In this document: one piece after another, positions 1 to 60,405 of the stretch
How positions within the stretch are numbered: position 1 is the first letter of the stretch
Layout: each line of letters starts with the position of its first letter
NCBI GenBank assembly: GCA_903872565.1
Contig: CAIQLG010000012.1
Coordinates: 18,337-82,336, forward strand
Direction of reading: 5' to 3'
DNA from: an uncultured Lentisphaerota bacterium
GTDB taxonomy: Bacteria; Verrucomicrobiota; Lentisphaeria; Victivallales; GWF2-50-93
Length of the DNA: 64,000 bases
Program-made: the position numbers and the translations under genes
Notes under the pieces: generated by a model
What the model saw: the letters and a program-made list of their open reading frames with translations, nothing else
What the model was told of the DNA's origin: nothing
Databases searched by the model: none

Positions 1-3000
1 GCGCACGCCCCAGGAGCCGAGCTGTGCCTTCAGCACCTCGCGGTTGGTGGCGTTGTCGTCCACCACCAGGATGTGTGTTCCGCGAATCTCTGTCGTAGGT
101 GTGGTGGCTTGTTTCCGCCCGGTCTGTTTTGCGAAACACGCAGTGAAGCAGAACTCCGAACCCGGTCCGCCCTCGTTTATCTTGTGCGGCGAAGGGCTTT
201 CAACGCCAATCTCTCCACCCATCAGTTCGGCGATCTGCTTGGAAATTGCCAGACCCAAGCCGGTACCGCCGTACCTGCGCGTGGTCGAGGAGTCCGCCTG
301 GGTGAACTTTTGGAATAGTTTGTCCTTCTTGTTTGTCGGGATGCCAATGCCGGTATCCCTGACGGAGAAGCGGATAACGGCGTTGGTGTCTGTTTCCTCC
401 ATGAGGTTTGCCCACACTGCGATCTCACCTTTCTGTGTGAACTTGATTGCATTGCCCACAATGTTGACGAGCACCTGGCGCAGGCGGCCGGGATCGCCGC
501 AAAGGTGGGGCGGCACGTCCGGTGCGATGGAGTATATGAATTCTAAATTCTTCTCATGTACTTGCAGTGCAATTGCTTCACAGAAATTATCCAGAATGTC
601 GCGCAGATCAAAGTCCAGCATTTCCATTTCTAGTTTGCCCGCCTCTATCTTCGAAAAGTCCAGGATGTCGTTTATGATTGTCATCAGTGATTCTCCGCTG
701 GAGCGAACTGTTTCGGCATATTTGCGCTGTTCGTCGCTGAGTTCCGTATCCAGCAGCAGCCCCGCCATTCCGATTACTCCATTCATGGGGGTGCGGATCT
801 CATGGCTCATGTTTGCGAGGAATTCGCTTTTGGCGGCATTTGCCTTGACGGCCTGGTCCAGTGCGGCCTCGAGCTGGTGGCTGCTTTCCTGCAGCACTTC
901 CTCCGCCCTCTTGAGTTTGGTTATGTCTCGCCATAGGCAATGAAGCACGTTTTTCCCCTTAATCGCGACTGGGGTGAGGGAGACTTCAACTGGAAAATCT
1001 TCTCCGCTGGCTTTCTGGTGCATCCATTCGAACCTATGGTATCCTTTTTCAAGGGCAATTCTCATCATCTCATTTGCTTTTTCAAAGGAGTTCTGTCCAT
1101 CAGGTTGCACGGTCGGAGAAAGTGCCGAGGGATGAGCCATTAAAACATGATTTTTATCGGGGTATCCGAGCATTTTTACGGTGGCTTCATTGCAATCCAC
1201 AAACGTCTCACCGTCAATCAGTAGAATGGCATCCCGTGAAGAATACAGGACATCCATGAATCGTTTTTCGCTATCCCTCAAGGCCGCTTCGGCCCTCTTG
1301 CGGTTGGTGATATCGGTGTCGGAGCCGCGGTAGCCCCGCAGAGTTCCATCGTTATTCATGAGTGGGATGCCGTTGGTGGAGACCCACATCTGGCGGCCAT
1401 CTTTGGCTTGTATTGTGTTTTCCAGATTTTGGAAGAGTTCCTTCCGCTCGAAGATTGCGAAGACATTTTTCTTGAACTCCTCGCGTCCGGATTCCGGATG
1501 CAGGTCGTAGAAATGCATTCGTCCCACCAGTTCGTCGGGGTGGTAGCCGATTACGGCACTGGCCACATTGCTGACATATGAATAGAGACCCTGAGCATCC
1601 ACTTCCCATGCGATGATTCGGCCATGCTGAGTCAATCGGTCTAATCGTGCTTCGCCCTCGCGCAATTCCATGACGGATGTTTCGAGTTGTCGTTCCACGG
1701 TGCCGGTAACAGACCAGAGCAGGATCAGGATACCTCCGAATAGGAGTGCCGTCAGGCTCAATCCAAGAAAAAGGGAGTCCTGTGTTTCTCCCAATTCGGT
1801 GCTTACATCATACAGTAAGATGAGTCCCGCCGTGTTACGGCCTGTGGCATCTGAAATAGGGATCATGCCACAGGCAAACCATTTTTCACCCAGGCTGGCA
1901 TCGAACATTTCGCTTAGCGTAGTCTGCTTGTTTCCATGCTCAAGCCAGCGTGTCAGCGCTTCTGGCAGGGCTGGAATCGTCTGGTGCGCCACCACGAAAT
2001 CTGGGTAGGCATTCCATTGCCCGGAAAAGCCAAACACCTGGCGGCCCGATTCGAATTTTTCTTTCGTAGTGTATTCTTTCCGGATGACTGTCAGTACGTC
2101 GAGGTTCATATCCTTGGCCAGTTGCGAACCCAGGTTATCCACTTCAATACCCAGTTCCAGGTAGCCAATCACATTGCCGTTCTGTTTCCACGGCCTTACA
2201 TAACGCAGAGTCAAAGATCCCATGGGGCCCAGTTCGACTCCCCAGGCATCCTCTCCGGTTTTTTCCGCCACGAGGAGTGTGTAGCGATCAATGATGTCGC
2301 CACGTCGGTCTGGCTGATGCACCCGGAGGAAGCAGTTATGGTCGGGTGCTATGAAGTAATAATGCGTGATCCCGAACTCCCGTTTCAAATGCTCAAAAAC
2401 AGGTTGGGTCTGCGATTTCAGCGCTGGGAGATCCCTCTGCTGCCAGGCCTTCAGCAGTGCAGGATCGCAGGCGATGTGATTCATCTGTGCCCTCAGGAGC
2501 GTGACATAGGCTCCGATGGCTTGATTATATTCGGTACGTGCCTGTTCCATGATGCGAAACATATTCTGGTGGGATTCTTCATCCAACTCCCTAAGCTCGA
2601 AGATACCATACAGCAGCAATCCGCCCAGCATTGCCAAGGCGGTGGGTGCAATAATCCATTTTCTGAATCTCAAAGTGTCTTGTCTCTTTCTCCGATTGCG
2701 CCAGCGTATGGCGATGATGCCGCATGCGAACAGCAGCATTATGGCGAGGGTGATGAGGAGCGGTTCCCGAACGGTGGCGTTGAGTTTTGACTGCCAGTCG
2801 CCGGCAATTATATCCACACCCAGGACCGCCAGCAGTTCGCCTGTCTGAGGATCGAGGACGGGGACAAAGGCTGAAACATAAGTTCCCCATTCGTCAACGT
2901 ATGGGCCGACTGTCGCCGGACATTTCTGTCTGATGGATTGCCATAGTTCCGGTGGGGGTTCCTTGTAATCGCCTCCGGGCGTTGTGTACTTAGGATCATT

Positions 3001-3354
3001 TGCATCCATATTGTCCGGCCCCCAGACAATCCGGTTCCCGCGTACTGCCATTAGATAAATCCATTTGGCATCTGGTTTCGCCTTGGCCGCATTAAGCATC
3101 TGTTTTCGGATGCACTCAAATGCCGGAGTTCCCGCATCTGCCGCAGTGAAGGTGAGTTTTCTTGCCAAGTCCGGGTTGAGTGTATTGGCAATCGCGACGG
3201 CTTGGCGGAGCAGGTGTTCCCTCATCTTGGTGTCCAGTCTTGCCGCCTTCCGATTTCCTTCCCACCATCCAAGGGCAAGCAGCAGCGTCAGCACTGACAG
3301 CACTGCCATGGTGCGTAGAACTGCGGTTCGGTTGATTTTCGGTTTATTGCTCAT
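1..3354 (-). CDS. Hybrid sensor histidine kinase, 3' end runs off the left edge (TM, Cache-like sensor regions, 2x PAS, HisKA, HATPase_c, start of receiver)
   Basis: Absent from the ORF track because no stop lies in the window. My reverse-complement translation is open from ATG 3354 (MSNKPKINRTAVLRTMAVLSVLTLLL...) down to base 1, in frame. It shows H-box [17 protein letters not shown]-lid [13 protein letters not shown] and, at the edge, [15 protein letters not shown]. The + ORF 44..943 is its antisense shadow. Confidence 0.85.
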   Translation of the reverse strand, partial: MSNKPKINRTAVLRTMAVLSVLTLLLALGWWEGNRKAARLDTKMREHLLRQAVAIANTLNPDLARKLTFTAADAGTPAFECIRKQMLNAAKAKPDAKWIYLMAVRGNRIVWGPDNMDANDPKYTTPGGDYKEPPPELWQSIRQKCPATVGPYVDEWGTYVSAFVPVLDPQTGELLAVLGVDIIAGDWQSKLNATVREPLLITLAIMLLFACGIIAIRWRNRRKRQDTLRFRKWIIAPTALAMLGGLLLYGIFELRELDEESHQNMFRIMEQARTEYNQAIGAYVTLLRAQMNHIACDPALLKAWQQRDLPALKSQTQPVFEHLKREFGITHYYFIAPDHNCFLRVHQPDRRGDIIDRYTLLVAEKTGEDAWGVELGPMGSLTLRYVRPWKQNGNVIGYLELGIEVDNLGSQLAKDMNLDVLTVIRKEYTTKEKFESGRQVFGFSGQWNAYPDFVVAHQTIPALPEALTRWLEHGNKQTTLSEMFDASLGEKWFACGMIPISDATGRNTAGLILLYDVSTELGETQDSLFLGLSLTALLFGGILILLWSVTGTVERQLETSVMELREGEARLDRLTQHGRIIAWEVDAQGLYSYVSNVASAVIGYHPDELVGRMHFYDLHPESGREEFKKNVFAIFERKELFQNLENTIQAKDGRQMWVSTNGIPLMNNDGTLRGYRGSDTDITNRKRAEAALRDSEKRFMDVLYSSRDAILLIDGETFVDCNEATVKMLGYPDKNHVLMAHPSALSPTVQPDGQNSFEKANEMMRIALEKGYHRFEWMHQKASGEDFPVEVSLTPVAIKGKNVLHCLWRDITKLKRAEEVLQESSHQLEAALDQAVKANAAKSEFLANMSHEIRTPMNGVIGMAGLLLDTELSDEQRKYAETVRSSGESLMTIINDILDFSKIEAGKLEMEMLDFDLRDILDNFCEAIALQVHEKNLEFIYSIAPDVPPHLCGDPGRLRQVLVNIVGNAIKFTQKGEIAVWANLMEETDTNAVIRFSVRDTGIGIPTNKKDKLFQKFTQADSSTTRRYGGTGLGLAISKQIAELMGGEIGVESPSPHKINEGGPGSEFCFTACFAKQTGRKQATTPTTEIRGTHILVVDDNATNREVLKAQLGSWGVR

Positions 3355-3443
3355 CAATTGTTGTTGCCTTATTTAATTCGAGGGACGCGAGGGACGCGAC
3401 CGGTAATCGGTGGTCTGTAATTACCTTTATTTTCTCTTCAATA

Positions 3444-3583
3444 ACTCCCATAGTTCTTATGATTCCCGTAATTCCCATTTCCCTCCCGCTGTTGGCGGGT
3501 ACCCCCCCGCCCTCCGTTGTATTTTTAAGGAGCGCGGGTTTTCCAACCCGCGATTTTCTCCCTGTTGGCGGGTACCCCCCGCC
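3444..3583. repeat. Composite intergenic repeat: C3/G3 9-nt periodic array, two copies of a ~26-nt unit and a GC hairpin
   Basis: The unit CTCCC(G)CTGTTGGCGGGTACCCCC(C)GCC occurs at 3483..3511 and 3558..3583, each with a GGCGGG/CCCGCC stem. Hairpin CGCGGGTT-ttcc-AACCCGCG at 3533..3552. The minus strand of 3465..3487 reads GGGAGGGAAATGGGAATTACGGG. Confidence 0.7.
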
Positions 3584-3647
3584 GTTGCTTTCGCAATTCC
3601 TCCTTGAATAACATATCCCTTTACGAGGGGAAAACAAACAGGATATC

Positions 3648-6554
3648 TTATGTGTTTAGCCCGAGCATTACAGATTTGACAGTTTTTTTCATTTCTTCAA
3701 TATCATAGGGTTTCTGAATGAAAATGAATCCTCTCTTGTGGATTGCCGCGATCCTTGATTTCTCGTCGGAATATCCGCTTGCGAGAATGACCTTTATCTC
3801 AGGATTTATCTTTTTGAATTCCTCGACAAGGTCCAGCCCATTGCAATCGGTGAGTACGACATCGCTTATCACAAGAGAAAATCTGCCCTTTTCCCTACTG
3901 AAAACTTCCCTGGCGACTTTGCCTGAATCCGCGCACACAATATTCCACCCGTCAGTTTCAAAGATTTCTTTCGCGAGATTTCTCAGTCCTGGTTCATCCT
4001 CTATGAAAAGTATTTTCACATTTTCACGAATGGTTGCAGTTGCAGTTTGTTCCGATATTACGTGAATGTCCTCATCAGCGTAATGGAATGGGAAATAGAT
4101 TTTGAAGGCTGTCCCCTTTCCCGGCGTGCTCTCAACGTCAACCCATCCTTTGTGGTGTTTGACGATTCCATAGACTACCGAGAGCCCGAGTCCCGTGCCC
4201 CTGCCCAAGCCTTTCGTGGTGAAGAACGGCTCGAAGATCCGATTTATCGTTTCCTTGTCCATCCCTGTTCCGTTGTCACAGACGGACAGTCGGACATATC
4301 TGCCCGGAACTGCGGAGATGTTGTCCGAGCATCCTTCCTCATCCACGGTGATATTTTCGGTCATTATAATCAGCGTTCCTCCATCCGGCATGGCATCATT
4401 GGCGTTCACAGCCAGGTTCATGATGATTTGCTCGATATTGGAGGGGTCACCGTTGATCGTCCAGACATCCGGGGTGGCCTTGATTTCGATTTTTATGTTC
4501 TCCGCGATGAGTCGCCTGAGAATTCTCTGCATGTTTAGGACGATGGAATTTATTTCGATAGTTTTAAATGCGACGGGCTGATTCCTGCTGAACATTAGGA
4601 TCTGCTTGGTGAGGCTTGCGGATGTGTCCGAGGCTTTTTTTATTTCGCCGAAATATTTTTTAAAAGGGCTTGAGGCGTCCGTTTTTTTAAGGCCGACCTG
4701 GGCGTATCCGCTTATGACGGTCAGAAGATTATTGAAGTCGTGGGCAATGCCGCCCGCGAGTTGTCCAATCGCCTCCATTTTCTGGGAATGTCTCAGCATT
4801 TCCTCCTTCCTGAGGCTTTCAGTTATATCCAGATCGGATCCCCTGTATCCGAGCAGATTTCCGTCACCGTCCAGGAACGGCACTCCATTTCTAGAAATCA
4901 ATTTTGTTTCACCGCTTTGGGAATTCACGGGCGTCACGAAATTTTTAAAGGCATCTTTGTTCATGAACACGTCGAGCTCTGCCCTTTTCATTTTTTCACT
5001 TTCATCTTCCGGATGGAAGTCGTAGAGGTGCATTTTTCCGACTATCTCCTCCGGTTTGTATCCGAGTATGAATTCAGCACCTTTGCTCACATAAGTGTAA
5101 AGTCCTCCGGCATCCACCTCCCATATCATTTCCCTTGTCTGTTCGGCAATCTGCTTGAATCTTTCCTTGCTCTGGTTCAGTGCCTTTTCAGAGCTGGAGA
5201 TTATGAGATTGGAAATCAACATTCTGTAGCTATACAGGAAAACCGACACGGTGACGGTCATGAAAAGGATTGTCAGGATAATCGGGATCAGCCTGTTCCG
5301 ATATATTGTGCTGTTCCATCTGGCGGCGCTCATGTCCATTCCGAGAATGGCTACAGTCTCGCCGGTTCTCGACATTTTGACGGGGGCGAAACAGCTTAGC
5401 CAAGTTCCCCACCTGTCCGTATATGGTCCGACAATTTTATATTCCCCGTCGCTGAACAAATCATTAACGCATCTCGGGGCATCGTTCCAGATCCGCCCCG
5501 GCGGAGAGCAGTCTTTTGAACCATGCGGTTCTGAATCCACCAGGAAGCTTACTCTGGAGTCATCTCCGACTTTCATCAGATATATGAATCTGTATTCGGA
5601 ACTGATTTCCTTTATTTTGGCGAGCTGTCTCTTAAGGCTCAAGTATGCCTCCGAACACAGATCCGTAGAATTTCCTTTCAGGGCGGGAATTCTTTCCATA
5701 TTTACGGCTTCAGCGACAACCCTGGCATTGGAAATGATGTCAAGTCTGAGTTCTTCATCGGTTCTCCTTCCCGAGATGTCTGTGGCAATTAGGCCTGCCA
5801 GCAGGATGCAAAAAATGATCGGCACATAAATTTTTTTAAACGGTATTCTACGGACCGTGGGCAGTAAATTGGGGGCGGGGATAGAAAAGGAGAAATAGTA
5901 CCATGTGAGACCGGCGGTCAAGGTCATCGCGCATATTCCGCTGGCGCCCTGGAGAGGCAGTCCGAAAAGTTCTCTGAACAATTCGCTGTTTATTGAACTT
6001 GCGGGGAAAAAGTTTGCCCTGGGGACAAAGACACCCATGAGGATTCCGTAGAGGAACATGGCGATGGAACTTAGAATCATGGGATATCGTTTCACATCGT
6101 TTTTTTCTCCTCTTTCCATATAGAATGCATACGATGCCGAAAAAGATCCTGTGATTAGAAAGACATATAGGCTTGCGGATTCATATCCCTTCGTACCGTC
6201 AATCCATCCGAGAGCGGAGAGGAGAAGCGGAAGAATGTATATCCATGCGCCGATACTTGTTATTTTCAGAACCGAAAGGGAACGCCTTCCGAATTCAAAG
6301 ATCGCCAACATTGAAACCGTATTGAAGAAGAACCGTACAATCTCGACATATTCCGGGAACAATGTGAATGGTTTGATGCAGATCGCCAATTCGGAGATTC
6401 CTGTTGAAAAGGTGAAAATTCCGAAGCAGAGGAACGGAAGTCTTTCAGCCTTGTTCTCGTGGAGGAAAAAACATATTATCGATAGAAAGATGAAGGAAAA
6501 TCCATACACGGCAAGCAGATAGTCCATTTGAAATTCGAATGTTACTTCCGGCAT
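3648..6554 (-). CDS. Hybrid sensor histidine kinase (multi-TM N-terminus, sensor region, PAS, HisKA, HATPase_c, C-terminal receiver)
   Basis: 968-aa ORF. Hydrophobic N-terminal ~250 aa. H-box GGIAHDFNNLLTVISGY, G-box GTGLGLSVVYGIV. Receiver ILFIEDEPGLRNL...ISDVVLTDCNG...ILASGY. Confidence 0.9.
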   Translation of the reverse strand: MPEVTFEFQMDYLLAVYGFSFIFLSIICFFLHENKAERLPFLCFGIFTFSTGISELAICIKPFTLFPEYVEIVRFFFNTVSMLAIFEFGRRSLSVLKITSIGAWIYILPLLLSALGWIDGTKGYESASLYVFLITGSFSASYAFYMERGEKNDVKRYPMILSSIAMFLYGILMGVFVPRANFFPASSINSELFRELFGLPLQGASGICAMTLTAGLTWYYFSFSIPAPNLLPTVRRIPFKKIYVPIIFCILLAGLIATDISGRRTDEELRLDIISNARVVAEAVNMERIPALKGNSTDLCSEAYLSLKRQLAKIKEISSEYRFIYLMKVGDDSRVSFLVDSEPHGSKDCSPPGRIWNDAPRCVNDLFSDGEYKIVGPYTDRWGTWLSCFAPVKMSRTGETVAILGMDMSAARWNSTIYRNRLIPIILTILFMTVTVSVFLYSYRMLISNLIISSSEKALNQSKERFKQIAEQTREMIWEVDAGGLYTYVSKGAEFILGYKPEEIVGKMHLYDFHPEDESEKMKRAELDVFMNKDAFKNFVTPVNSQSGETKLISRNGVPFLDGDGNLLGYRGSDLDITESLRKEEMLRHSQKMEAIGQLAGGIAHDFNNLLTVISGYAQVGLKKTDASSPFKKYFGEIKKASDTSASLTKQILMFSRNQPVAFKTIEINSIVLNMQRILRRLIAENIKIEIKATPDVWTINGDPSNIEQIIMNLAVNANDAMPDGGTLIIMTENITVDEEGCSDNISAVPGRYVRLSVCDNGTGMDKETINRIFEPFFTTKGLGRGTGLGLSVVYGIVKHHKGWVDVESTPGKGTAFKIYFPFHYADEDIHVISEQTATATIRENVKILFIEDEPGLRNLAKEIFETDGWNIVCADSGKVAREVFSREKGRFSLVISDVVLTDCNGLDLVEEFKKINPEIKVILASGYSDEKSRIAAIHKRGFIFIQKPYDIEEMKKTVKSVMLGLNT

Positions 6555-6565
6555 TTTATTCTCCC

Positions 6566-7885
6566 TTATTTCCAGTCATTTTCTCTGAAGAGAATGCTTC
6601 TGAATATTTTTTTTGTCAGCGAATGTCCCGATTTGAAGTCCTCGGGATTTGCCATGTAATGTGTTATGACCTTCGTCAGATCCAACATGGAGGCGAGGCG
6701 GTTGCCCGGGGTCTTGTCAAGCATTCTCGCCATTAGATCCTGTAGCCATTCCGGGATTTCCGGATTGATGCTTCTTGGTGCTGGAGGTTTTGCAGTTTTT
6801 ATTTTTTCCATGACCGCGTGAGCAGTTTTTCCCAAGAATGGCCTTTCTCCGGTAAATAGCTCATAGAGGAGGACTCCGAACGAGAAGATGTCTGACTTGG
6901 TGTCGCCTTGTGTTTCACCTCTAAGTATTTCCGGCGCCATGTAGGATGGCGATCCCCTGAGGGTGTCTGTCAAAGTGAGTGACGGGTCGAGAATTTTCGC
7001 TATGCCGAAATCTGTGATTTTCACGCGGATGTCTTCGGTCAGAAGGACATTTTCAGGCTTCAGGTCGCGGTGGAGTATCTTTTTTGAATGGATGTAGTCA
7101 AGTCCCGAAGCAATCTGAAGAGTCACTGAAAGTTTGTCCTCGTCTGTAAGATTTGCATTCTTTATGTAACTGGAGAGTGGTGCTCCGTGGACATATTCCA
7201 TGACGATATACGGCAGATCGTCGCCTTCAAAACCCCCCACGTCAAAAAGTTTGACCACATACGCATTGTCGAGAGACTTGAGGATCTCGGCTTCCCTGTT
7301 GAATCTTTTTTTTGCCAGCCTGTCAATTTCGGATCCTGAGTTGTTCAGAATCTTCATTGCGAAATAAGAGTCGTTTTTTTCAACGAGGAACACAGTTCCC
7401 GCGCCACCTGAGCCGATGGACTTGATCACGGAATATCCGTTTCTGATTTTTCCGACATTGCTGCCTTTCGTCTTTATCCGGCTCCCGTTTTTACGATCAA
7501 GGATAAGTCGGTTAATTTTTTTTTGCAGGTCATCGAGATTGAGTGGCTTGGGAAGATAGTCATAAGCTCCCTCCTTAATGGCTGTTACAGCCGCTTTGAA
7601 ATCAGGAACTCCTGTGACGAGGATGAAATCCGTCTTATTGTCCTTGCTTCTTACAGCTCTTAGAAGTTCGAGTCCAGACATATCCGGCATATTTATGTCG
7701 GAGATTACAAGATCGAAGTGCTTTGAGCTGAGTTTTTTCAGCGCCTCAGATGCCGATATGGCGGTATCAACCGCAAATCCGCTGTCGGCAAGGAAGAGTT
7801 CGAGCACCTGGAGGATTTCGTTCTGGTCATCCACAACAAGGATGGAAAGAAGAGGCAGGACTATTTTTTTTTTTTGCAGTCGCAT
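6566..7885 (-). CDS. Response-regulator receiver fused to Hanks-type Ser/Thr protein kinase (REC-STK 1)
   Basis: Receiver ILVVDDQNEIL...LVISDINMPDMSG...LPKPL. Kinase motifs GSGGAGTVF, AMK, HRDLKPENVLL, DFGIAK, SPSYMAPE. The start overlaps the stop of the upstream kinase across an A12 tract. Confidence 0.9.
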   Translation of the reverse strand: MRLQKKKIVLPLLSILVVDDQNEILQVLELFLADSGFAVDTAISASEALKKLSSKHFDLVISDINMPDMSGLELLRAVRSKDNKTDFILVTGVPDFKAAVTAIKEGAYDYLPKPLNLDDLQKKINRLILDRKNGSRIKTKGSNVGKIRNGYSVIKSIGSGGAGTVFLVEKNDSYFAMKILNNSGSEIDRLAKKRFNREAEILKSLDNAYVVKLFDVGGFEGDDLPYIVMEYVHGAPLSSYIKNANLTDEDKLSVTLQIASGLDYIHSKKILHRDLKPENVLLTEDIRVKITDFGIAKILDPSLTLTDTLRGSPSYMAPEILRGETQGDTKSDIFSFGVLLYELFTGERPFLGKTAHAVMEKIKTAKPPAPRSINPEIPEWLQDLMARMLDKTPGNRLASMLDLTKVITHYMANPEDFKSGHSLTKKIFRSILFRENDWK

Positions 7886-9486
7886 AGCACTTTGCGGAGC
7901 GTTGCGGACAATCCTTCTTCAGTGAAGGGTTTTTCAATGAAATTGATGCCCTTGTCGAGAATTCCACTGTTGGCCATCACATGGGATGTGTAGCCTGACA
8001 TGAATAGGCATTTGATTTTTGGGCGCATTGCGGTGATTCTCTTTCCGAGATCCTGTCCGTTCATTCCCGGAAGCACCACATCTGTCATCAGAAGATGAAT
8101 GTCTCCCTCGTCCTCCTTCGCCAGTTTGATTGCTTTGGCCGGGCTGTCCGCAGCCAGCACTGCATAGCCCATATGTTCAAGCTGCATTTTTGTAAGACAC
8201 AGCAAGGATGCCTCATCCTCTACCAGAAGGATAGTTTCATTTCCTCTGAGTATTTCGGAACTTCCAGGTGTCTCATCGGTTTCCTTATTTTCCGATTTGT
8301 ACCGCGGAAGATATATCTTGAATGTTGACCCCAGCCCAATTTCACTGTAAACATTGATGCATCCGTTGTTCTGCTTTACGATGCCGAAGACAGTGGAAAG
8401 ACCAAGGCCGGTTCCATTTTCGGTTTTTTTGGTGGTGAAAAACGGATCAAACAGGTGGGATATGGTCTCCTTGTCCATCCCGCATCCATTGTCTCCGACC
8501 GAGAGCACGACATATTCTCCTGGGACAAACTCGATGTGCGCCTTGCAATAGGCCGGGTCCAACTTGGAGTTGTAAGTCTCAATTGTCACCTTGCCGCCGT
8601 CGGCGACTGCATCACGGGCGTTGATGAGAAGGTTGGTAAGAATCTGATCAAGATGGGAGGAGTCCATCTTTACTGTCCAAAGTTTGGCGGCGGGTTTCCA
8701 TTGCAGTTCAATATTTTCACCAAGAAGCCTGTGCAGCATATTCAGCATGCTTTCAATGCTGTCGGCAATGTTCAGCTCTTTCATCGAGATGGGCTGTTTG
8801 CGGGCGAATGCGAGAAGCTGGTGGGTGAGGTCTGCGGAGCGTTGCCCTGCCTTTCTGATTTCCATCACACTGTCATACATCGGATTTGAAGAGGCAATCT
8901 CCTTTAGCAGCATCTGCGAATGTCCGTTGATGACAGCGAGCATATTGTTGAAATCGTGCGCGATACCGCCTGCCAGCTGACCTACAGCTTCCATCTTCTG
9001 AGCCTGACGAAGCTGAGATTCCAGATTTTCACGCTCCGCATTAAATGTCCGCTCCCATTCCTCCTTCGCTTTGAGCAGGCGCTCCATGGCCATATGGCGT
9101 CCCAGGGCGTAACACAGGACGCGCGCCAACAACAGCCCCGACACCTGGTCGCTCATGTGGCCTTTCATAATGTAGTCCTGCGCGCCTTCCTGTATTGCCG
9201 CCAGCCCCATTCTCTCATCGTCATTTCCGGTCAGCACGACAATTGGGATATCGGTGTCGGCTCTCCTCATTGCTCTCAAGGTTTCCAGCCCACTGCTGTC
9301 CGGCAGTTCCAAATTCAGAAGGATAATGTAGAATGGACCTTGCCTGGCGAGTTCAATGGCATCCGAAAGCCGCTGCACACATTTGATTTCAAACCTCGAC
9401 TCGCCGTCTGTTGCCAGCAACTCCCGTATCAAGCGGACATCGGCCGGGTTGTTTTCAACCAGCAGGACGTGTAACCTCTCAGTCAT
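7861..9486 (-). CDS. Hybrid histidine kinase with N- and C-terminal receiver domains (REC-HisKA-HATPase-REC)
   Basis: VLLVENNPADVRL...LLNLELPDSSG; H-box GGIAHDFNNMLAVINGH; GTGLGLSTVFGIV; second receiver ILLVEDEASL...LMTDVVLPGMNG. SD AAGGAG lies upstream of ATG 9486. Confidence 0.9.
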   Translation of the reverse strand: MTERLHVLLVENNPADVRLIRELLATDGESRFEIKCVQRLSDAIELARQGPFYIILLNLELPDSSGLETLRAMRRADTDIPIVVLTGNDDERMGLAAIQEGAQDYIMKGHMSDQVSGLLLARVLCYALGRHMAMERLLKAKEEWERTFNAERENLESQLRQAQKMEAVGQLAGGIAHDFNNMLAVINGHSQMLLKEIASSNPMYDSVMEIRKAGQRSADLTHQLLAFARKQPISMKELNIADSIESMLNMLHRLLGENIELQWKPAAKLWTVKMDSSHLDQILTNLLINARDAVADGGKVTIETYNSKLDPAYCKAHIEFVPGEYVVLSVGDNGCGMDKETISHLFDPFFTTKKTENGTGLGLSTVFGIVKQNNGCINVYSEIGLGSTFKIYLPRYKSENKETDETPGSSEILRGNETILLVEDEASLLCLTKMQLEHMGYAVLAADSPAKAIKLAKEDEGDIHLLMTDVVLPGMNGQDLGKRITAMRPKIKCLFMSGYTSHVMANSGILDKGINFIEKPFTEEGLSATLRKVLCDCKKKK

Positions 9487-11347: not shown

Positions 11348-11445
11348 AAAGATTGCTCCCGTTCTTAGGATATGGATTACTGGCGAACCATGCTTGGCAA
11401 CCGTCGGCTGCAAGGACGACTCGGCAGGTACCCATGTTTTGGTTT

Positions 11446-11652
11446 TTAGGCCGCTGTAGCTGTCAGACCGATAGCTTCAGCATACTTCAGATACGTTTCG
11501 ACTGACGCGACCACAACTCTGGCTTCAACTGCCAGAAGTTCTATCCCGACGAGGGATACCCTGACCCATGCGTCAACCACGATACCTTTGTCAAGTATGC
11601 GGTCCACAACTTCAACAAGACTCGAACTGCCGATTGTTTTTTCCACTGCCAT
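11446..11652 (-). CDS. gvpA: Gas vesicle structural protein GvpA (copy 1)
   Basis: The 68-aa product [68 protein letters not shown] is a textbook GvpA sequence. AGGAG SD. Confidence 0.95.
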
Positions 11653-11747: not shown

Positions 11748-11954
11748 TTACGCTGCCGTAGCTGTCAGACCGATAGCTTCAGCATACTTCAGATACGTTT
11801 CGACCGACGCGACCACTACTCTAGCTTCAACTGCGAGAAGCTCGATACCAACCAGTGATACCCTGACCCATGCGTCAACAACGATACCCTTGTCCAATAT
11901 GCGGTCAACAACTTCGACCAGACTGGAACTTCCGATTGTTTTCTCCACTGCCAT
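11748..11954 (-). CDS. gvpA: Gas vesicle structural protein GvpA (copy 2, product identical to copy 1)
   Basis: Same 68-aa product. The ORF-track start 11963 is a GTG inside the SD GGGGGTGA, so ATG 11954 is preferred. Confidence 0.95.
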
Positions 11955-12017: not shown

Positions 12018-12033
12018 AGCATGAAGGATGCCA
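12018..12033 (-). promoter_or_regulatory. Candidate sigma54 (-24/-12) promoter upstream of gvpA copy 2
   Basis: The minus strand reads TGGCATCCTTCATGCT (GG-N10-GC spacing), about 65 nt upstream of ATG 11954. Near-identical elements occur at three other sites in the window. Confidence 0.5.
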
Positions 12034-12192
12034 AAGGCTATAGCTGACTTTTAAAATAATTTCTATCATTTTAGTTATAAACGAGTTACATCTGCATTAA
12101 AAAAATAGACTGCTGGTAAATCAGATTTTATTGCATCGTTTTTTTGGGAATAATATGTGACAAAAACGGACAGAATTGAACGGAATTGCCAC

Positions 12193-12430
12193 AGTGGGGA
12201 ATGGGGAAGGGGAAAGAATGTGAGTTATGGGAAGCATGGGAGTTATTTTTTTGAGACCTTTGAGGGCAGGGGAAATATAGCTCTCATAATTCAATGTTGC
12301 TAAGTTAAGCCAAGTAACGCGGGATACCACCCCGCGACTTTCCTCGGGGAGATTCCCCGAGTTACTCGAATTCAGGCTTAACTTAGCAACATTCCTCTCA
12401 TAATTCACATAATTTCCATAGCTCCCATAA
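12193..12430. repeat. Inverted arrays of 9-nt GGGA(A/G)TTAT-type units, interrupted by a palindromic insertion
   Basis: 12193..12250 reads GTGGGGAATGGGGAAGGGGAAAGAATGTGAGTTATGGGAAGCATGGGAGTTAT. The reverse complement of 12385..12430 reads GGGAGCTATGGAAATTATGTGAATTATGAGAGG. The same unit type is seen at 18257..18305 and 3444..3487. Confidence 0.65.
12293..12393. repeat. 101-bp MITE-like palindromic element with 19-bp perfect terminal inverted repeats
   Basis: AATGTTGCTAAGTTAAGCC (12293..12311) is the exact reverse complement of 12375..12393. Two internal GC hairpins (CGCGGG..CCCGCG, CTCGGGG..CCCCGAG). Flanked by the direct repeat CTCTCATAATTC at 12281..12292 and 12395..12406. Confidence 0.7.
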
Positions 12431-15333: not shown

Positions 15334-15568
15334 ACACGCTAAAGCCGTGAACTCCAGCAAATTATTATCTTGACATAAGCATTCACTAAATAAAAATGGC
15401 ACTAAGTCAAGGGTTTCTTCTGAAGTAACTCGGGTCTATTGACCCGAGAATCGCGGGTCAGATAGACCCGCGCTACTCTGGGATGAGCCTTAACTTGGTG
15501 GCATTCCACTAAATAACGCATAGTTCACTCCTTTGAAACTGCCGTTGGAGTTCACGGCTTTAGCGTGT
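15334..15568. repeat. 235-bp palindromic element with 23-bp perfect terminal inverted repeats, carrying a second nested MITE-like element (15395..15505)
   Basis: ACACGCTAAAGCCGTGAACTCCA (15334..15356) is the exact reverse complement of 15546..15568. The inner element has imperfect ends (AATGGCACTAAGTCAAGGG / GCCTTAACTTGGTGGCATT). It carries the same two GC hairpins as 12293..12393 in opposite orientation. It is flanked by CACTAAATAA at 15384..15393 and 15507..15516. Confidence 0.7.
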
Positions 15569-17818: not shown

Positions 17819-17977
17819 TCAGTCCTCTGCTGTTGCGAGTGCCACAGCTTCAGCATACTCCAGATAGATTTCGACCGAGGGCACAACAATTCTGGCCTCA
17901 ACCTCGATACCTTTGTCCATCACGCGATCCATAGCTTCGACCAGGCTTGGACTTCCGCTTGTTTTTTCCGCTGTCAT
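17819..17977 (-). CDS. 52-aa GvpA-like protein lacking the central beta-hairpin (in-frame 16-residue gap relative to GvpA)
   Basis: Below the ORF-track length cutoff; I translated it by hand: [52 protein letters not shown]. It aligns with GvpA residues 1-24 and 41-68. SD GGGGAATACC and a sigma54-like element lie upstream. Confidence 0.6.
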
Positions 17978-18074: not shown

Positions 18075-18090
18075 AGCAGGATTGATGCCA
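18075..18090 (-). promoter_or_regulatory. Candidate sigma54 (-24/-12) promoter upstream of the short gvpA-like ORF
   Basis: The minus strand reads TGGCATCAATCCTGCT, preceded by CAGCTATA as at the gvpA copy 2 element. About 100 nt upstream of ATG 17977. Confidence 0.5.
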
Positions 18091-18256
18091 TAAGTTATAG
18101 CTGGTGTTTTCATAAGTTCCTATCTTTATTAATATAAACATCTTGCATATATACAAAAAAATAATATGTCAAAATATACGGTGTCTGAAGGCTTCCTATA
18201 TGGTGATTATATGGGACAAATCCGGGCAGAATGGTTGGATTTGCCACAGAAAAGAA

Positions 18257-18393
18257 GGGAGGGGAAAGAATGGGAATTATGGGAGGAACGGGAATTATGG
18301 GAATTATAATTTTGTGTCCCTAGATTTGCTTGGCGGAAGTCTTTCCGCACAAGCAAATCTATAAGTTTCCACAATTGGGAGAATTGTGGAAAC
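18257..18393. repeat. G3-N6 periodic array followed by a 41-nt nested hairpin and a 12-bp-stem hairpin
   Basis: GGGAGGGGAAAGAATGGGAATTATGGGAGGAACGGGAATTATGGG (18257..18301). TAGATTTGCTTG-GCGGAAGTCTTTCCGC-ACAAGCAAATCTA (18321..18361). GTTTCCACAATT-gggag-AATTGTGGAAAC (18365..18393). Confidence 0.75.
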
Positions 18394-18551
18394 GTCATCT
18401 GAATATTTTTCTATGCATGAACCGCATACCCGCATCCTTTTTACTCAAAAGATGGCGCGGAATGAAAAATGCGGCGGCATGGAGCAAGTGTCCAAGCTCC
18501 ATGTCAATGTCAGAATAAATATGTTTTATGGCCGGGATGCCGTCCGTGATC

Positions 18552-19073
18552 CTATGCGGTCAGCGGCAGACCTTTATATGTCCATCTGTACGGTTTCGCC
18601 ATAGTCCTGTTGAAATAGGAAATGAACATTTCCATCTTATCCCCGAGATCGCCTTCATGCCCGGTCAATTCCGCAACCATTCGGACAAGAGTTTCGGACA
18701 TATGGGTGTTGAGCTGGTCGCTGATGAATATCCATTGGTCTTTCCGCCTGTCTCCTATTGTAGAGGCTATATGCTCTGCGAAATCCTGTTCGTTCCGCGT
18801 CTCGCCAATATGATGACGGACTATTTTTCCTGTGGCTACTTCAAAAGAGGGTATCAAGGAAAGTGTGCCATGCCGCATGTATTCGAACTCGATCTTCTCG
18901 GGATGACCGGCTATCATCGGCTTCGTCGGCGCAACCCGCTCCAGCGCCTGGATGCCGGTCTTTTCATCTGTCGAGATCAAATGCGTGCCAGCATCATGAA
19001 GCTCGGAGGCATGTGAATAAAGGCCGCAGATCTCCGTCTCGCGGTCATGGCCGAGTTCGTCAAATGGGCAGGC
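18552..19073 (-). mobile_element. IS630-family transposase relic (pseudogene: N-terminal HTH region missing, internal deletion removing the end of the DDE domain)
   Basis: ...FDELGHDRETEICGLYSH...LISTDEKTGIQALER...EFEYMRHGTLSL...FISDQLNTHMSE... jumps directly to ...FISYFNRTMAKPYRWTYKG. The open frame extends upstream of the ORF-track TTG start to a stop at 19074..19076. No inverted repeats of an intact IS were recognised. Confidence 0.75.
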
Positions 19074-19171
19074 TTACGGAGCAGGGAAACAAAAAAAAAA
19101 CTGTTTTTTTAAGGAGATGAGCTCGAGTGGTTCATCGAAGATAGGAACACAATGATCCTCAGAAGGAAAAA

Positions 19172-19249
19172 GTTAAGGAGAATGGGGAATTTGGAATGTG
19201 ACTCTCAGTAGATAATCTCGTGCGGAAAGACTTCCGCCGAGATTATCTA
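19172..19249. repeat. Second copy of the 41-nt nested hairpin family with GGGGAATTTGGAATGTGA leader
   Basis: TAGATAATCTCG-TGCGGAAAGACTTCCGC-CGAGATTATCTA (19209..19249). The inner GCGGAAAGACTTCCGC is the reverse complement of the inner hairpin at 18332..18347. Confidence 0.7.
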
Positions 19250-19488
19250 GGGAATTGTATTTTCGCGTTTTTTGCGTGTTCAGCGGGAAAAATATGGTAC
19301 CAAGTTTCCGCCGCGGCGGATTAAGTCCAAATTTCCTGACTCGTGGCTTCAATGACTGGCTCTCCTGTGTCCGTTTCGGAAAAACGGACATACTGTGAAT
19401 ACTTACCAGTTCCTGCGAATCAGGAGTTCCAAAATTATTTTTAAAAGAAAATTAGTTTTGCGTCTTGAAAAATTATATTTGCCGAACA

Positions 19489-31976: not shown

Positions 31977-31979
31977 AAA

Positions 31980-49411: not shown

Positions 49412-49510
49412 GGAGGGCAGGGGGGGCACAAAAAGATATAAATCACATTCATATGTAATAGATTTATAGTCAATATGATATATACTATTAATGATATTGG
49501 CTTTAGTCTC

Positions 49511-49526
49511 TGGCATCCTTCCTGCT
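49511..49526 (+). promoter_or_regulatory. Candidate sigma54 (-24/-12) promoter upstream of the secreted peptidase gene
   Basis: TGGCATCCTTCCTGCT on the + strand, one mismatch from the gvpA copy 2 element. About 88 nt upstream of ATG 49614. Confidence 0.5.
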
Positions 49527-49613: not shown

Positions 49614-51029
49614 ATGAAATGGAAAATGTTTTTTGCAGTCCTGTCAGTCATGTATGTCGTCTCATCGGTTCAGGCTCAGGAAAATGACCTGCCATATGGC
49701 GTAATGAGACCTGATGCGAAAACCCTCAAAAAATGGAATGAGAACTTTCTCCGGCAGCCACTTGCGGAAGTCTCTTCCACCCGTGCAAGCAAACGTGGGA
49801 ATTTTTCACTTCTCGGCCACTTGAATTTTGATCCTGTCCTGCGCGATCAGGGGCGTACCGGGACCTGCTGGATATGGGCTGGCACAGGTTGCCTTTCCAT
49901 CGCTCTTGATATCCAGAAGTCTGTCGCGTCAGAGCTCATGAACGGCCTTTCTGTCCAGTTTCTGGCATCGAACGAGGCGCTTGTTGGTGCCACCTACGAA
50001 TCAGGCGGCGATATGCCGCAGATCATTGATTTTTACTCACGTGTCGGATATTCCATCGCCTGGACAAACACCAGCGCCGAATGGCAGGACGGTGACGGAG
50101 TACAGAATTGCCCGAGCTCATGGATCCACACCAATCCGCGCTATCCGATCAGCGCAATAAGCTTGTCGGCAGTTTCAACCACTGGCGTTGATCAGGCGAC
50201 GGCCATAGCAAACATCAAAGACGCCCTGAACCAGGACAATCCGATATCTTTGGCATTTTATATGCCGACCGATAAGGACTGGCTTGGCTTTTCCACATTT
50301 TGGAGCAATGACCCCGAGACCACGATCATAAATCTGGATAAATATCCTGTCGCCCCCTGGGATAATGGCGCAGGACACGGTGTCGTGTGCGTCGGCTATA
50401 ATGATGACGCACCGGAACTCGAAAACCAGTACTGGATAATCCTCAACAGCTGGGGAGATGCCGACGGGAAACGCCCGGACGGATGCTTCCGACTCTCGAT
50501 GAATCTCGACTATTCAAAACAGCTCACCCAGGGAAGTTCAACTTTTTACGCCTACCAATGGAGCATATTCAATGTCAAATTTTCAGATGTCATGAACAAG
50601 CGTTTTGACAGCGTGTCATTCAATTTCAACAATGCCAGGACGGACGCGGACACGTGCACAATATCGAAATACACCTTCTCGGGTTCAGCTCCCACGGCCA
50701 TATCGAATGCGGTTCTGCGCATGAACGGGTATGACATCACTTGCAATAGCAGCACCGGAACGTGGAGCGCAAATGGAAAAATCTTCAAATTCAAAAGCAA
50801 GCCCAATGGCGGTGCGAAGGTTGAGATTACAGTTGACGGCAATAAAAATTTCTGGAGCTCAAAGGTTACTAAAAGCGACATCAACAGATATGTGAACTAT
50901 TACGATGCGCTTGATTTTGACCTTTCGACTTCTCCCAACGAATCGGCACCGGTGGTTCTCGGCAATTCATGCACCCTGATGTTTGACGATCTCTGCCCTA
51001 AAGCCTCCGGAAAGGCAAAGAAAAAATAA
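49614..51029 (+). CDS. Secreted papain-like (C1-family-like) cysteine peptidase with C-terminal beta-rich domain
   Basis: Signal peptide MKWKMFFAVLSVMYVVSSVQA. Catalytic-Cys context DQGRTGTCWIWAG, His context GAGHGVVCVGY, YWIILNSWG. Confidence 0.65.
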   Translation: MKWKMFFAVLSVMYVVSSVQAQENDLPYGVMRPDAKTLKKWNENFLRQPLAEVSSTRASKRGNFSLLGHLNFDPVLRDQGRTGTCWIWAGTGCLSIALDIQKSVASELMNGLSVQFLASNEALVGATYESGGDMPQIIDFYSRVGYSIAWTNTSAEWQDGDGVQNCPSSWIHTNPRYPISAISLSAVSTTGVDQATAIANIKDALNQDNPISLAFYMPTDKDWLGFSTFWSNDPETTIINLDKYPVAPWDNGAGHGVVCVGYNDDAPELENQYWIILNSWGDADGKRPDGCFRLSMNLDYSKQLTQGSSTFYAYQWSIFNVKFSDVMNKRFDSVSFNFNNARTDADTCTISKYTFSGSAPTAISNAVLRMNGYDITCNSSTGTWSANGKIFKFKSKPNGGAKVEITVDGNKNFWSSKVTKSDINRYVNYYDALDFDLSTSPNESAPVVLGNSCTLMFDDLCPKASGKAKKK

Positions 51030-53659: not shown

Positions 53660-56600
53660 CTATTTGTCTTTAATCTGGTCAAATCCTGTGATGCGGCTGC
53701 CGCTGAATTTTGCGCGATAAAGCAAATCCGAGCTCGTGTCCTTGAATATGACTTCATCCCTTCCGTCCCCGTCCGAATCGGATGATTGGATGAACTCGAA
53801 GTTTTTCAGTGCGAGCCTCTGTCCTTTCGGTGCCATATCCCATCCGACAATTCCTCTGTCTATGCGGATTTCGCAGTTCTGTGAATTGAACCAGACGATT
53901 TCGGAGGTACCGTCGCCATCGAAATCTCCAGTGGCGACCACCATCACCGATTTGTCGAGTCCGTGCCAGAGGAGACGTTTCTTGCCTGTAAGCGGGCTGT
54001 AAATCCAGAACGGTCCTGAATCCGCGCCACTTCTCGATATTACCTCCGAGGCTCCGTCGCCGTCGAAATCTCCGGAACCTATTATCTGGCAGGGGGCCAC
54101 AGGATCAAGTAGCAGAGAACCCATTTCACTGCCTTTCAAACTGTCGCTTCCCGAAGCGAAATGTCTTCCGTCGTCGGCTGTCCACAGGGAGTCGCTTTTT
54201 CCGTCGCCATCGAAGTCGTCTCTTGGCACGATTTGCCTGGCGTGGAAGACTAGTTCGACATCCGTGGCATCATTAACTTCCTTTGTGCCGGGACGGAACT
54301 TGAATCCATCAAACGATGGAGCAACCACGTATTTGTCCTGCGGGACTCTTGTGAATTTGAAATTGCCATTGGCATCGGTCTGAACCATGCCAAGAACTCC
54401 ACTTCTCATATGCAGGCGGACAATTGCGGTCTTGGATGCTGGAAGATCTTCGACCCGCCCGGTAATATTGATAAAAGTGTTGGTCGCGGATTTTTTGATC
54501 GTGAAATTAACGTCTTCGATGTCTTTGTTGGTCATTTTTTTGCTTATTGAAACCGGGTCGAACACAAATCCTGTTTTCGAAGGAGTGAAGGTATATGTCG
54601 CCGGTGTGAGCATGAAGGAGAATTTTCCGTCCTTGTCGGTCATCGCGGACTGATCAGCTCCGTTAGGCGACTTCACTGTTATTTTCACGCCGTCGGCATC
54701 GCTTTGCGTCACCTGCCCCTTGGCGGCGAAGACGGAGACAGGATCCGCGTTGAAAATAAGATTGGGATATTTGTCGTAGCCCATGGATGAAGTCAGATCG
54801 AAAGTGTAGCTCTTGTCCTTGTCTTTCGAAGATTCGAACTGATATGCGGAATATGATGGAGTGATGGTGTAGTTCCCGGTGTCGAGGGCATCGAACTGGA
54901 ACGTCCCGTCCCTTTCACTCGTGAAAGTCACTCTCTTGTAACCACTCTTGTCATTTTTCACAAGGGTGACCATCGCTCCGCCGAAAGGTTCCCATGAGGC
55001 GCCATTCTTGCTGCGGATTTTCCCGAATGCCAGATTCTTCGCATTCTCCGAGGAAGTCGTGTTGAAATCAACACCTGAAATGTCCTTGTCCACAATCTCA
55101 AGCTCCCTGCTGACCGGGGTGAAAGTTTTTTTGTTGAAACTCGGGACAAGCGTATATTTCCCCGGGCGCAAACCGGTGATTTTATACATTCCCAGCTCCT
55201 TGTCCTCCATGTATACCAGTCTGCTGAATTTTTCGCCGATTACTGCAATTGCGGCACCGGATGTCTTGTTTCCCTGTCCATCGGTAAGCCCTAGAATGTT
55301 CCCGGAAATGTCGTAGGAATATCTTGCCACAATGGTCCGATTTGTCTTTATGGGAAGAGCGGATAGTACGGGATTTGTCGGATCTATGAATCCAGAGGAA
55401 TCGCCCTGGCTGTCGGTCCATTTTGCGAACTTCGCAGAGCCGAACTGCGCTGGCGCGGAAACGGTCACTGTCTCTCCCGTCTTGAAGATTCTCGAGAATG
55501 GAGCACGTCCGGAACCGTATCCATTCTGGTCGATCTTGTCGAAGAGAATGGTGGGGGAAATTCCTTCGTCTGACTTCACGATAAGCTCGGAAATGGAAGA
55601 ATCCTGTTTGAGCATCGAATATTTGATATTAACTTTGAGGCTCTTGATGCTGAAGCTGTCTTCCGAGTCGGATGGTGCACCTTTCATGGCTGTTCTGCCG
55701 GATCCCTCGCCTCTGAGGGATTTGCTTTCCTTGTTCTCCATGGATTTTTTGATGTTTATCGTGGCATTCGCTGAGGGCCAGCAAAATATCGGCATTTCCG
55801 CATCAGTGACTGCAAGCTTCTTGTCGGTAAGTATGGTCTTAAGCAGAGACGCCTCGGCCACGCTTGGGACAATTTGAGTGATACTTTTCGTCGTATATGT
55901 GTATTTGCCGCCCCAAACTATCTTATTGTCGCCCGAAGTGGAATTGTAGTGTCGGAAACGATAGGCGTTGCCCTTTGCCGTGCTGAGGTCGGAAACGCCG
56001 TCATGAGTGAAGAACACTGAGAAGTTGGCGTTCTTGGTCGAAGGCGCCCATGGCGCGAGCCCGACATTCATCTCGGTCACTTCGATACTTCTGATGCGCA
56101 GTCCCTGTTCGCTGCCGAACAATCCGGTTTTTTGAAAATTGATCTCGAGTGTTTCGCCCCGGTTTAGGGCATCGAGCTGGTTCGGGTGGAACTCATAGGT
56201 GGTTTCGGTATCGCTTTCGCTCGATTTGCGCATGTTTATGATTTCATCGTAGAGTTGAGCGCACATCTTCCAGATCACATCGGAATAGAGAGTCTTGAGC
56301 TGTTTGAACTGACCTTCATTGAGTGTGGAGCCGGCATTGTCAACCTCGACGAGTTTGATGATGCTGTTCTTGAGATCGCTCAGATCGAGCGGGGTGGTAT
56401 ATTCCTTGAGCATGCGGTATTCGTAGGCCTTCTTCATGTAGTAATGATATTTGATGAGGTTGTCCTCCGCCCGCTTCGAGAGTTCGTCGAGATAGCTGTC
56501 AAGTCTCGGGTCAATCGCACCCTGCCGCAGCAGGACTTGATTCTGGATGCTGTCTATGGCGTTCAGGGATGCGGTCATCTGGTTCGTGTAGAATGCGACG

Positions 56601-60290: not shown

Positions 60291-60306
60291 AGCAGGAGGG
60301 ATGCCC
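60291..60306 (-). promoter_or_regulatory. Candidate sigma54 (-24/-12) promoter upstream of the gvpA-module ORF / giant protein operon
   Basis: The minus strand reads GGGCATCCCTCCTGCT (GG-N10-GC). About 75 nt upstream of ATG 60215. Confidence 0.45.
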
Positions 60307-60405
60307 AAAGACTGAGACGATATTTTATAATTTCTTTAACATCTTAATGATTAATATGTTAGATATAAAATAAAACATGAAATTAATCTGAATAAATTTA
60401 TGCCC

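Follow-up and report, generated by a model that had tools for sequence, protein, structure and literature searches.

Copies of a gas-vesicle promoter cassette of probable sigma-54 type precede two loci for apparently secreted proteins in an uncultured Lentisphaerota bacterium

The closest described system is that of Serratia sp. ATCC 39006, where the gvpA1 operon carries a sigma-54 consensus site 5' of a start mapped by rapid amplification of 5' cDNA ends (5'-RACE) and needs the NtrC-like protein GvrA, which is encoded in the cluster (PMC4982088). An rpoN mutant of this strain makes no gas vesicles (PMC11778176), and homologues of GvrA have been noted in Thiodictyon (PMC5944118). The reuse of promoters has been surveyed separately in prokaryotes under the name of 'putative mobile promoters' (PMC3575422). 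Here we describe a 64,000-nt stretch of contig CAIQLG010000012.1 (the window), from an uncultured Lentisphaerota bacterium, whose minus strand from 18.1 kb to the left end carries part of a gas-vesicle cluster. Four near-identical elements in the window are, to judge from their sequence, very probably sigma-54 promoters; two precede gvpA-type genes, one a peptidase gene and one an operon for a 1922-aa protein. Control of gvpA by sigma-54 and an NtrC-type activator is already known from Serratia, and what is added here is that the promoter has been copied to other genes.

An initial annotation of the window had placed four 16-mers of the sigma-54 -24/-12 type ahead of gvpA copy 2, a short gvpA-like open reading frame (ORF), a papain-like peptidase gene and an ORF with a gvpA module that is followed by a giant protein. 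All four were found at these places, with matching coordinates and strands. The first, TGGCATCCTTCATGCT (12018..12033, minus strand), precedes the gvpA2-gvpA1 operon and has a predicted transcription start site (TSS) at ~12007. The second, TGGCATCAATCCTGCT (18075..18090, minus strand; predicted TSS ~18064), lies before a 52-aa degenerate gvpA, behind which come a 118-aa ORF, an HPr-CBM fusion, GvpF/L and further genes. The third, TGGCATCCTTCCTGCT (49511..49526, plus strand; predicted TSS ~49537), stands before the Peptidase_C1 gene, and the fourth, GGGCATCCCTCCTGCT (60291..60306, minus strand; predicted TSS ~60280), before the operon of a 258-aa ORF and the 1922-aa protein. Their common pattern, GGCATCNNTCNTGCT, has four matches on the two strands of the window, against 0.02 expected (the mean over 100 dinucleotide-preserving shuffles, none of which reached four). 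Further matches inside coding sequence or facing the wrong way, which the initial annotation had named as a possible refutation, were absent from the 64-kb window. As annotated, GG-N10-GC is kept in 4/4 cores; all are intergenic and each is aimed at the downstream gene. From the 3' end of the core to the ATG we measured 63 nt for gvpA copy 2 (whose true ATG is at 11954), 97 nt for the 52-aa ORF, 87 nt for the peptidase and 75 nt for the 258-aa ORF, close to the 65-100 nt given before, and each of these start codons bears a good ribosome-binding site (Shine-Dalgarno). The AT-rich DNA described further upstream was likewise there, with 73-81% A+T in the 64 nt 5' of each core.

The gvpA element is also conserved in relatives. 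Their loci, which carry L numbers here, were obtained by exact look-up of the window's GvpA protein; L006/L007, L008/L009 and L012 all encode the identical 68-aa GvpA. The underlying DNA has diverged, third codon positions of gvpA being identical to the window at 46-49% in L006, 55-57% in L012 and 80-86% in L008. Ahead of the first gvpA we found TGGCATGAATTCTGCT in L006/L007, TGGCATCCTTTCTGCT in L008/L009 and TGGCATTCTTGTTGCT in L012, so that TGGCAT-N6-TGCT is invariant in all of them and the spacer varies. Fixation of the sigma-54 letters with a free spacer is the pattern expected of a -24/-12 promoter. When each locus was scanned with the sigma-54 matrix described below, the gvpA promoter ranked best in L006 and L012 and second-best in L008. 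Among named organisms, this promoter layout is shared by Ca. Theseobacter exili (PVC group) alone. The occurrence of identical GvpA proteins encoded by diverged DNA reflects extreme protein conservation, horizontal spread, or both; the 90% identity cluster of GvpA holds metagenome-assembled genomes (MAGs) labelled Victivallales, Sedimentisphaerales, Atribacteria and Actinomycetota. The gvpA of L008/L009 (L008 10001-10207) encodes the identical protein from DNA that is 93-95% identical, has a promoter 86% identical including the inverted repeat discussed below, and is followed by a gene for a 114-aa receiver protein. The samples concerned also gave contigs matching the window, and this gvpA may belong to a close relative or be an additional copy within the same genome. 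Scans of the genome and metagenome collections with the extended motif GGCATCCNTCNTGCTNNTACTAG added no member to the regulon. The genome collection gave one match, in a Bdellovibrionota MAG (L005 1026-1048, minus strand; CTGGCATCCCTCTTGCTCATACTAG), which is intergenic, ends ~45 nt 5' of a lipoprotein gene and is aimed at that gene; it is probably an unrelated sigma-54 site. Of the four matches in the metagenome collection, three lie in 70%-GC DNA and one has neither an AT-rich module nor a downstream gene start.

The near-identity of the four elements in the window is largely due to common descent, as they are copies of one cassette of ~93 nt or more. Local alignments to the 12018 promoter, numbered from the first core base, run from -213 to +162 for the 18075 copy (76% identity), from -69 to +135 for the giant-operon copy at 60291 (78%) and from -64 to +29 for the peptidase copy at 49511 (76%). 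The region common to all four is therefore -64..+29 (~93 nt), in register and ~75% identical. For the 64 nt 5' of the core, ungapped pairs have 33-40/64 identical positions where ~20 are expected (z 3.5-5.7). Identity between copies is higher in the core itself (13-15/16, or 81-94%) than in the flanks (52-63% upstream and 17-57% in the downstream 30 nt), which argues for tighter constraint on the core than on the other DNA that was copied with it. Immediately upstream lies a 64-nt A+T-rich module, at 12034..12097 (minus strand; holding ATGTAA..TTTATA..ATGATAG), at 49447..49510 (plus strand; partly palindromic) and, by in-register alignment, at 18091..18154 and 60307..60370 (both minus strand). 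Its conserved block reads roughly ATGYAA-N4-TTWATAG-N5-ATGATA. The distance from ATGATA to the core is 29 nt in the first three window copies and in L008, 17 nt in L006 and 40 nt in L012; it thus changes by steps of about one helical turn, and this spacing fits a bend or a factor that would act from one face of the helix. By-eye inspection of the module gave no convincing canonical IHF consensus. Some 120-160 nt 5' of the core there is an inverted repeat, TGTGGCAA-N22-TTGTCACA at 12156..12193 (minus strand) and TGTGGCAA-N21-TTGTCCCA at 18212..18248 (minus strand; kept in L017). The pattern TGTGGCAA-N21/22-TTGYCMCA has two matches in the window with 0 expected, both at the gvpA-type copies. Among relatives the repeat is a perfect 8-bp one in L008, lies directly 3' of the gene for a bacterial enhancer-binding protein (bEBP) in L017, and is present in L023. 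As an activator site (upstream activating sequence, UAS) it is the natural candidate.

The fit to a generic matrix speaks for the assignment to sigma-54, with the reservation that the matrix renders the published consensus TGGCACG-N4-TTGCW with frequencies that are our own approximation; on both strands of the window it scored 49511 at 15.2, 18075 at 14.9, 12018 at 14.1 and 60291 at 12.3, so that the former three are the top three sites of the window and 60291 is the eighth. Several points weigh against the assignment. The core at 60291 opens GGG in place of TGG. The flavour of these promoters, TGGCATC....CTGCT, departs from the textbook consensus at -21/-20 (TC for CG) and at -15 (A or C for T). 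As the four are paralogous copies, their mutual likeness is weaker functional evidence than four independent occurrences would be. Finally, Pfam scans of all large ORFs found no Sigma54_activat protein in the window, just as the initial annotation had stated for AAA+ enhancer-binding proteins. The deviant letters at -21/-20 and -15, together with a conservation that reaches past the core (TACTAGNCC in three copies), would also suit an operator bound by some other protein, or a promoter read by a different sigma factor, with no more than a resemblance to GG-N10-GC. We give this explanation hardly any credence. The invariant letters are exactly the sigma-54-critical ones, at loci that keep just 46-57% identity at synonymous sites; the element lacks palindromic symmetry; and a gene for a GAFTGA-bearing sigma-54-dependent activator adjoins the cluster in relatives. 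Sigma-70 in particular was considered and rejected, since consensus matches were neither enriched in the window (19 vs 13.7 +/- 4.0; 19 vs 12.5 +/- 3.7) nor consistently placed at the four sites. The sigma-54 reading of the initial annotation is supported by consensus fit, position, orientation, the letters invariant in relatives and the bEBP gene near the cluster, and we hold this promoter assignment on its own with more confidence than the full model set out below. A structured leader RNA was also considered and rejected: for three of the leaders the predicted folding is no stronger than in shuffles (z = -0.06, -0.45 and +1.4), the 18075 leader is mildly structured (z = -2.3 vs shuffles), and Rfam yields only a tRNA.

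The initial annotation had left the activator to be either elsewhere or unconventional. Within the window, the ORFs of activator size (465-474 aa) were rejected as candidates, being FAD oxidoreductase and BNR proteins. Sibling contigs suggest that 'elsewhere' was right and 'unconventional' was not. Contig Mreo0HSN (70 kb) has the same genes as the window and, beyond the 52-aa ORF, continues with an intact IS630, a small MazE-like ORF, an activator gene, GvpK and the remainder of a large gvp cluster. This activator, beside gvpK, has 452 aa and the architecture Response_reg + Sigma54_activat + HTH_8. In contig M-m_8ATT the activator gene is directly 5' of the 52-aa ORF with no insertion between them. 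Locus L017 is 99% identical to window positions 17786-18254; 5' of this shared stretch it encodes the activator C-terminus GGNKVKAAALLRLDRKSLYRKMDKLGIS*, which looks like a typical Fis-type HTH_8 C-terminus, then come the inverted repeat and the TGGCATCAATCCTGCT core. The end of the activator gene is ~310 nt 5' of the 18075 core in the sibling contig. In L012 a 464-aa activator gene ends 517 nt 5' of gvpA; its GAFTGA motif is intact, this being the one activator in which the motif itself was checked. At source this protein is annotated as a sigma-54-dependent regulator of Candidatus Theseobacter exili (Ca. Auribacterota, PVC group), and by NCBIfam it is generically AtoC/NtrC/ZraR-like, under every equivalog cut-off. 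Judging by gene order and domains, then, the activator missing from the window is a conventional one of the NtrC type whose gene belongs next to the cluster. As an activator of this kind is useful only with sigma-54, rpoN is very likely present in these organisms. A second sigma-54-like site in L012, TGGTATGATTATTGCT (6911-6926, plus strand), lies 79 nt 5' of the activator gene and suggests that the activator may be autoregulated in Ca. Theseobacter exili.

Candidate genes for signal input lie at the other end of the cluster. A sensor kinase ORF begins at 3354 and is cut off by the left edge of the window; in the sibling contig it has 1521 aa and the domains dCache-PAS-HK-REC-Hpt. Next to it are a PAS-HK-REC protein (3648-6554), a receiver/Ser-Thr kinase fusion (6566-7885) and a REC-HK-REC protein (7861-9486), all likewise on the minus strand. 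The genes in 1..9486 (minus strand) are the probable signal input to the receiver domain of the activator. The fusion has two paralogues elsewhere in the gvp cluster (12441-13769 and 13971-15293, both minus strand), and this receiver-Ser/Thr kinase architecture is unusual for a gvp locus.

At the giant-protein operon the donor of the cassette can be recognized from leftover gvpA coding sequence. The 258-aa ORF (59439..60215, minus strand) is followed after 10 nt by the gene for the 1922-aa protein (53660..59428, minus strand), which contains CarboxypepD_reg and FG-GAP repeats; the pairing of the two genes is conserved in relatives. The 258-aa ORF begins with MATEKTVGCSSLLGVVDRMIHCEGIV, the N-terminus of GvpA, and its nucleotide likeness to gvpA spans codons 1-26 (60138-60215). 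Past this remnant come Met31, the ancestral start, and a signal-peptide-like stretch, fused in frame. Homologues of 71% and 55% identity have the signal-peptide-like N-terminus without the GvpA-like part, and the 541 nt upstream of the 71% homologue (L022) contain no sigma-54 site. In L023, a 96%-identical variant, the remnant is more gvpA-like, the core is TGGCATTCTTCCTGCT and the far-upstream inverted repeat is kept. Between the window variant and L023, 6 of the first 30 residues differ as against 5 of the other 228 (p = 5e-4; ~9x faster). A remnant that diverges faster than the rest of the protein is decaying and not serving as a domain, so the 'gvpA module' of the initial annotation has to be given up: it is the fast-decaying remnant, ~26 residues long, of a copied gvpA 5' end and not a conserved domain.

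At the peptidase locus the gene (471 aa; 49614..51029, plus strand) does match Peptidase_C1, as 'papain-like' had implied, and its product has a hydrophobic, signal-peptide-like N-terminus. No cassette was found at the orthologous loci L024 and L027 (75-77% identity) or L025/L026 (51%); L025 and L027 carry TTGAAW-N17-TAGATT, a sigma-70-like promoter, instead. The non-gvp copies of the cassette are lineage-specific. Since orthologues of the target genes elsewhere are without it and a gvpA remnant is left at one of the loci, the comparison argues that the gvpA control region was copied before two unrelated genes whose products are apparently secreted. Adjoining the C1 peptidase gene, a 112-aa ORF (51147-51485, minus strand) matches only the last ~100 of the 438 positions of Peptidase_C1_2 (bleomycin-hydrolase-like) and is probably a gene fragment.

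Copies that arise in this way need not work, and those at the 52-aa ORF, the peptidase gene and the giant operon might be non-functional relics of segmental duplication. The four elements are demonstrably paralogous, the gvpA-derived codons of the 258-aa ORF evolve at the accelerated rate just given, and the 52-aa ORF (17819..17977, minus strand) is a damaged gvpA: its kinship to GvpA, as annotated, is real, and what the annotation took for a short relative is GvpA without 16 internal residues, in the beta-hairpin region. It matches the NCBIfam GvpA model in two stretches, below the cut-off. At least 18 contigs, from more than one sample, carry the identical sequence, and this ORF is the first of an operon. 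Against this, the core is far better conserved than the DNA on either side; every copy sits at promoter distance from its gene, whose start codon has a good ribosome-binding site; and the peptidase locus has no other consistent promoter, its sole sigma-70-like match being a weak one (9/12). On balance we consider it very unlikely that these copies are relics.

Mobile DNA is found close to two of the copies. Directly 5' of the 18075 promoter region, where sibling strains hold the bEBP gene, lies an IS630-derived element (18317..19253; no strand assigned), consisting of a pair of 45-nt inverted repeats around a truncated transposase ORF (18552-18980, minus strand). The palindromic element of ~45 nt, with core GCGGAAGNCTYTCCGC, occurs three times: two copies (18317-18361 and 19209-19253) flank the truncated IS630 transposase ORF, and the third (~60403-60444) is directly 5' of the 60291 cassette, at the site where L023 has the inverted repeat. 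This hints at IS-assisted rearrangement near promoter copies. The only RNA family match in the window, tRNA-Arg(CCT) at 60565-60640 (plus strand), is on the opposite strand ~260 nt 5' of the 60291 promoter.

Altogether we consider probable a model in which the four elements act as activator-driven sigma-54 promoters and are all derived, by copying, from a single gas-vesicle cassette; the sigma-54 dependence, the activator site, the phosphorelay input, the start sites and the co-regulation of non-gvp genes are what we infer from sequence. The original cassette, comprising the far-upstream inverted repeat, the A+T-rich module of ~64 nt, the TGGCAT-N6-TGCT core and the leader, would drive the first gvpA. 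Sigma-54 RNA polymerase would form a closed complex on the core, and the NtrC-type activator (receiver, AAA+, HTH_8) encoded beside the cluster would bind upstream, phosphorylated, probably, by the cluster's hybrid sensor kinases and Hpt domain. It would then loop over the A+T-rich segment, which is probably bent, and open the promoter using ATP, with transcription starting ~12 nt past the GC (~12007, 18064, 49537 and 60280). In this lineage the cassette would have been copied before the C1 peptidase gene and before the 258-aa/1922-aa operon, where it took along the first 26 codons of gvpA.

A single regulon that includes the non-gvp genes is plausible on this model, and two observations weigh against parts of the model. 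Neither the 49511 copy nor the window's 60291 copy has the inverted repeat, which makes their co-regulation the weakest step and their activation by the protein that serves the gvpA copies no more than putative. Moreover, the junction of the gvp half-cluster with the remainder of the window falls inside the IS630-derived repeat and is not spanned by independent assemblies: contigs from the gvp side stop at 18700-18836 (L013-L015) and those from the side of the 244-aa gene diverge at 18931 (L032, L036), so that it is either strain-specific or an assembly join through the repeat. The giant-protein locus is nevertheless linked, by its gvpA remnant at 60138-60215, to a genome having this gvpA. It may be that all four are sigma-54 promoters without belonging to a common regulon. 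The gvpA-type copies would then answer to the activator of the cluster, and those at the peptidase gene and the giant operon would have lost the activator site and now be served by another bEBP or be weak to silent. The inverted repeat is confined to 12156-12193 and 18212-18248, the palindromic IS-associated element at 60291 has taken the place of the repeat seen in L023, and at the peptidase locus the intergenic space that holds the copy is short (~100 nt) and follows a sensor-kinase gene. Set against this, the 64-nt A+T-rich module is in register in 4/4 copies, suggesting a common upstream factor, and L023 shows that the giant-operon copy originally had the repeat. Sigma-54 activators, furthermore, can work from sites within neighbouring genes, or from solution if abundant. 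We therefore rate a split regulon as rather unlikely and keep the single activator-driven cassette as the preferred model.

More tentatively, and with considerable doubt, the pieces could be assembled into a young 'float and attach/digest' regulon. Here the complete gvpA control region (activator site, A+T-rich module, -24/-12 core, leader and first 26 codons) would have been copied to two secreted-protein loci, the copying maybe aided by the IS630-associated palindrome, and these loci would now share the phosphorelay and the sigma-54 activator of buoyancy. If this is true, the 1922-aa FG-GAP/CarboxypepD_reg protein and the C1 peptidase would be switched on together with buoyancy.

The remaining genes of the window give the setting. 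From 18.1 kb leftwards the cluster consists of the 52-aa ORF, the 118-aa ORF, an HPr/AMPK-CBM fusion, GvpF/L, two receiver/Ser-Thr kinase fusions, two gvpA, two paralogues of no known family, REC-HK-REC, the third receiver/Ser-Thr kinase fusion, PAS-HK-REC and the sensor kinase. Copy 2 of gvpA (68 aa; 11748..11954, minus strand) matches Pfam Gas_vesicle and NCBIfam GvpA; copy 1 (68 aa; 11446..11652, minus strand) encodes an identical protein from DNA that is 89% identical. Directly 3' of the pair are genes for two paralogous charged proteins of 228 and 263 aa (9864-10550 and 10622-11413, minus strand) with no family match in Pfam or NCBIfam; from their position these could be GvpC-like. In the operon behind the 18075 promoter, 16539-17378 (minus strand) encodes a PTS HPr domain fused to an AMPK-type glycogen-binding module. 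HPr/NPr-like proteins are classically linked with rpoN operons in Proteobacteria. GvpF/L is separated from the next kinase gene by 367 nt, which contain near-identical inverted 23-nt hairpins (15337-15359, minus strand, and 15543-15565, plus strand). Between 19.6 and 46 kb there are carbohydrate-metabolism genes, then a hybrid kinase, then the peptidase. At 30909-39378 (plus strand) six URO-D-family (uroporphyrinogen-decarboxylase-like) paralogues stand in a row, interrupted by a mannitol-dehydrogenase-like gene, which looks like an array of methyltransferase or decarboxylase genes. The aminotransferase of the window has homologues of ~70% identity among proteins of several phyla.

Serratia sp. 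ATCC 39006 is the only organism in which the control of gas vesicles by sigma-54 and an NtrC-type protein has been dissected. The same logic appears here in uncultured anaerobic lake bacteria, a PVC member among them, and such control is probably widespread. The locus also offers a clear and datable case of regulatory rewiring by the copying of a whole activator-dependent promoter, with relatives that show the state before capture. Its practical value is modest: it yields predictions of where transcription starts and where the activator binds, and a set of candidates for co-regulation.

How far does this locus resemble the systems already described? As in Serratia, a -24/-12 element stands 5' of the first gvpA in the cluster, and a gene for an NtrC-family activator lies in or next to the gvp cluster (here in sibling contigs and L012), with more two-component proteins in the cluster. 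This likeness is one of layout and domains. Unlike Serratia, the present cluster has three receiver/Ser-Thr kinase fusions and large hybrid kinases in place of GvrB/GvrC, its promoter has also been copied to non-gvp genes, and the host is an uncultured freshwater bacterium. With classical promoters of the NtrC/NifA type (TGGCAC-N5-TTGCW) the elements share GG and GC exactly 10 nt apart and an A+T-rich segment upstream, with, at the two gvpA-type copies, an inverted repeat beyond it, ~120-160 nt from the core; they differ in the flavour of their core and in having no IHF consensus recognisable by eye. Finally, as with mobile promoters, homologous promoter DNA precedes non-homologous genes in one genome, and orthologues elsewhere are without the cassette. 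Two of the copies are adjoined by a palindromic element associated with IS630, which may have had a role in the copying. What sets the present case apart from those mobile promoters is that the reused unit appears to be an activator-dependent sigma-54 promoter, one copy of which keeps a coding remnant of its donor.

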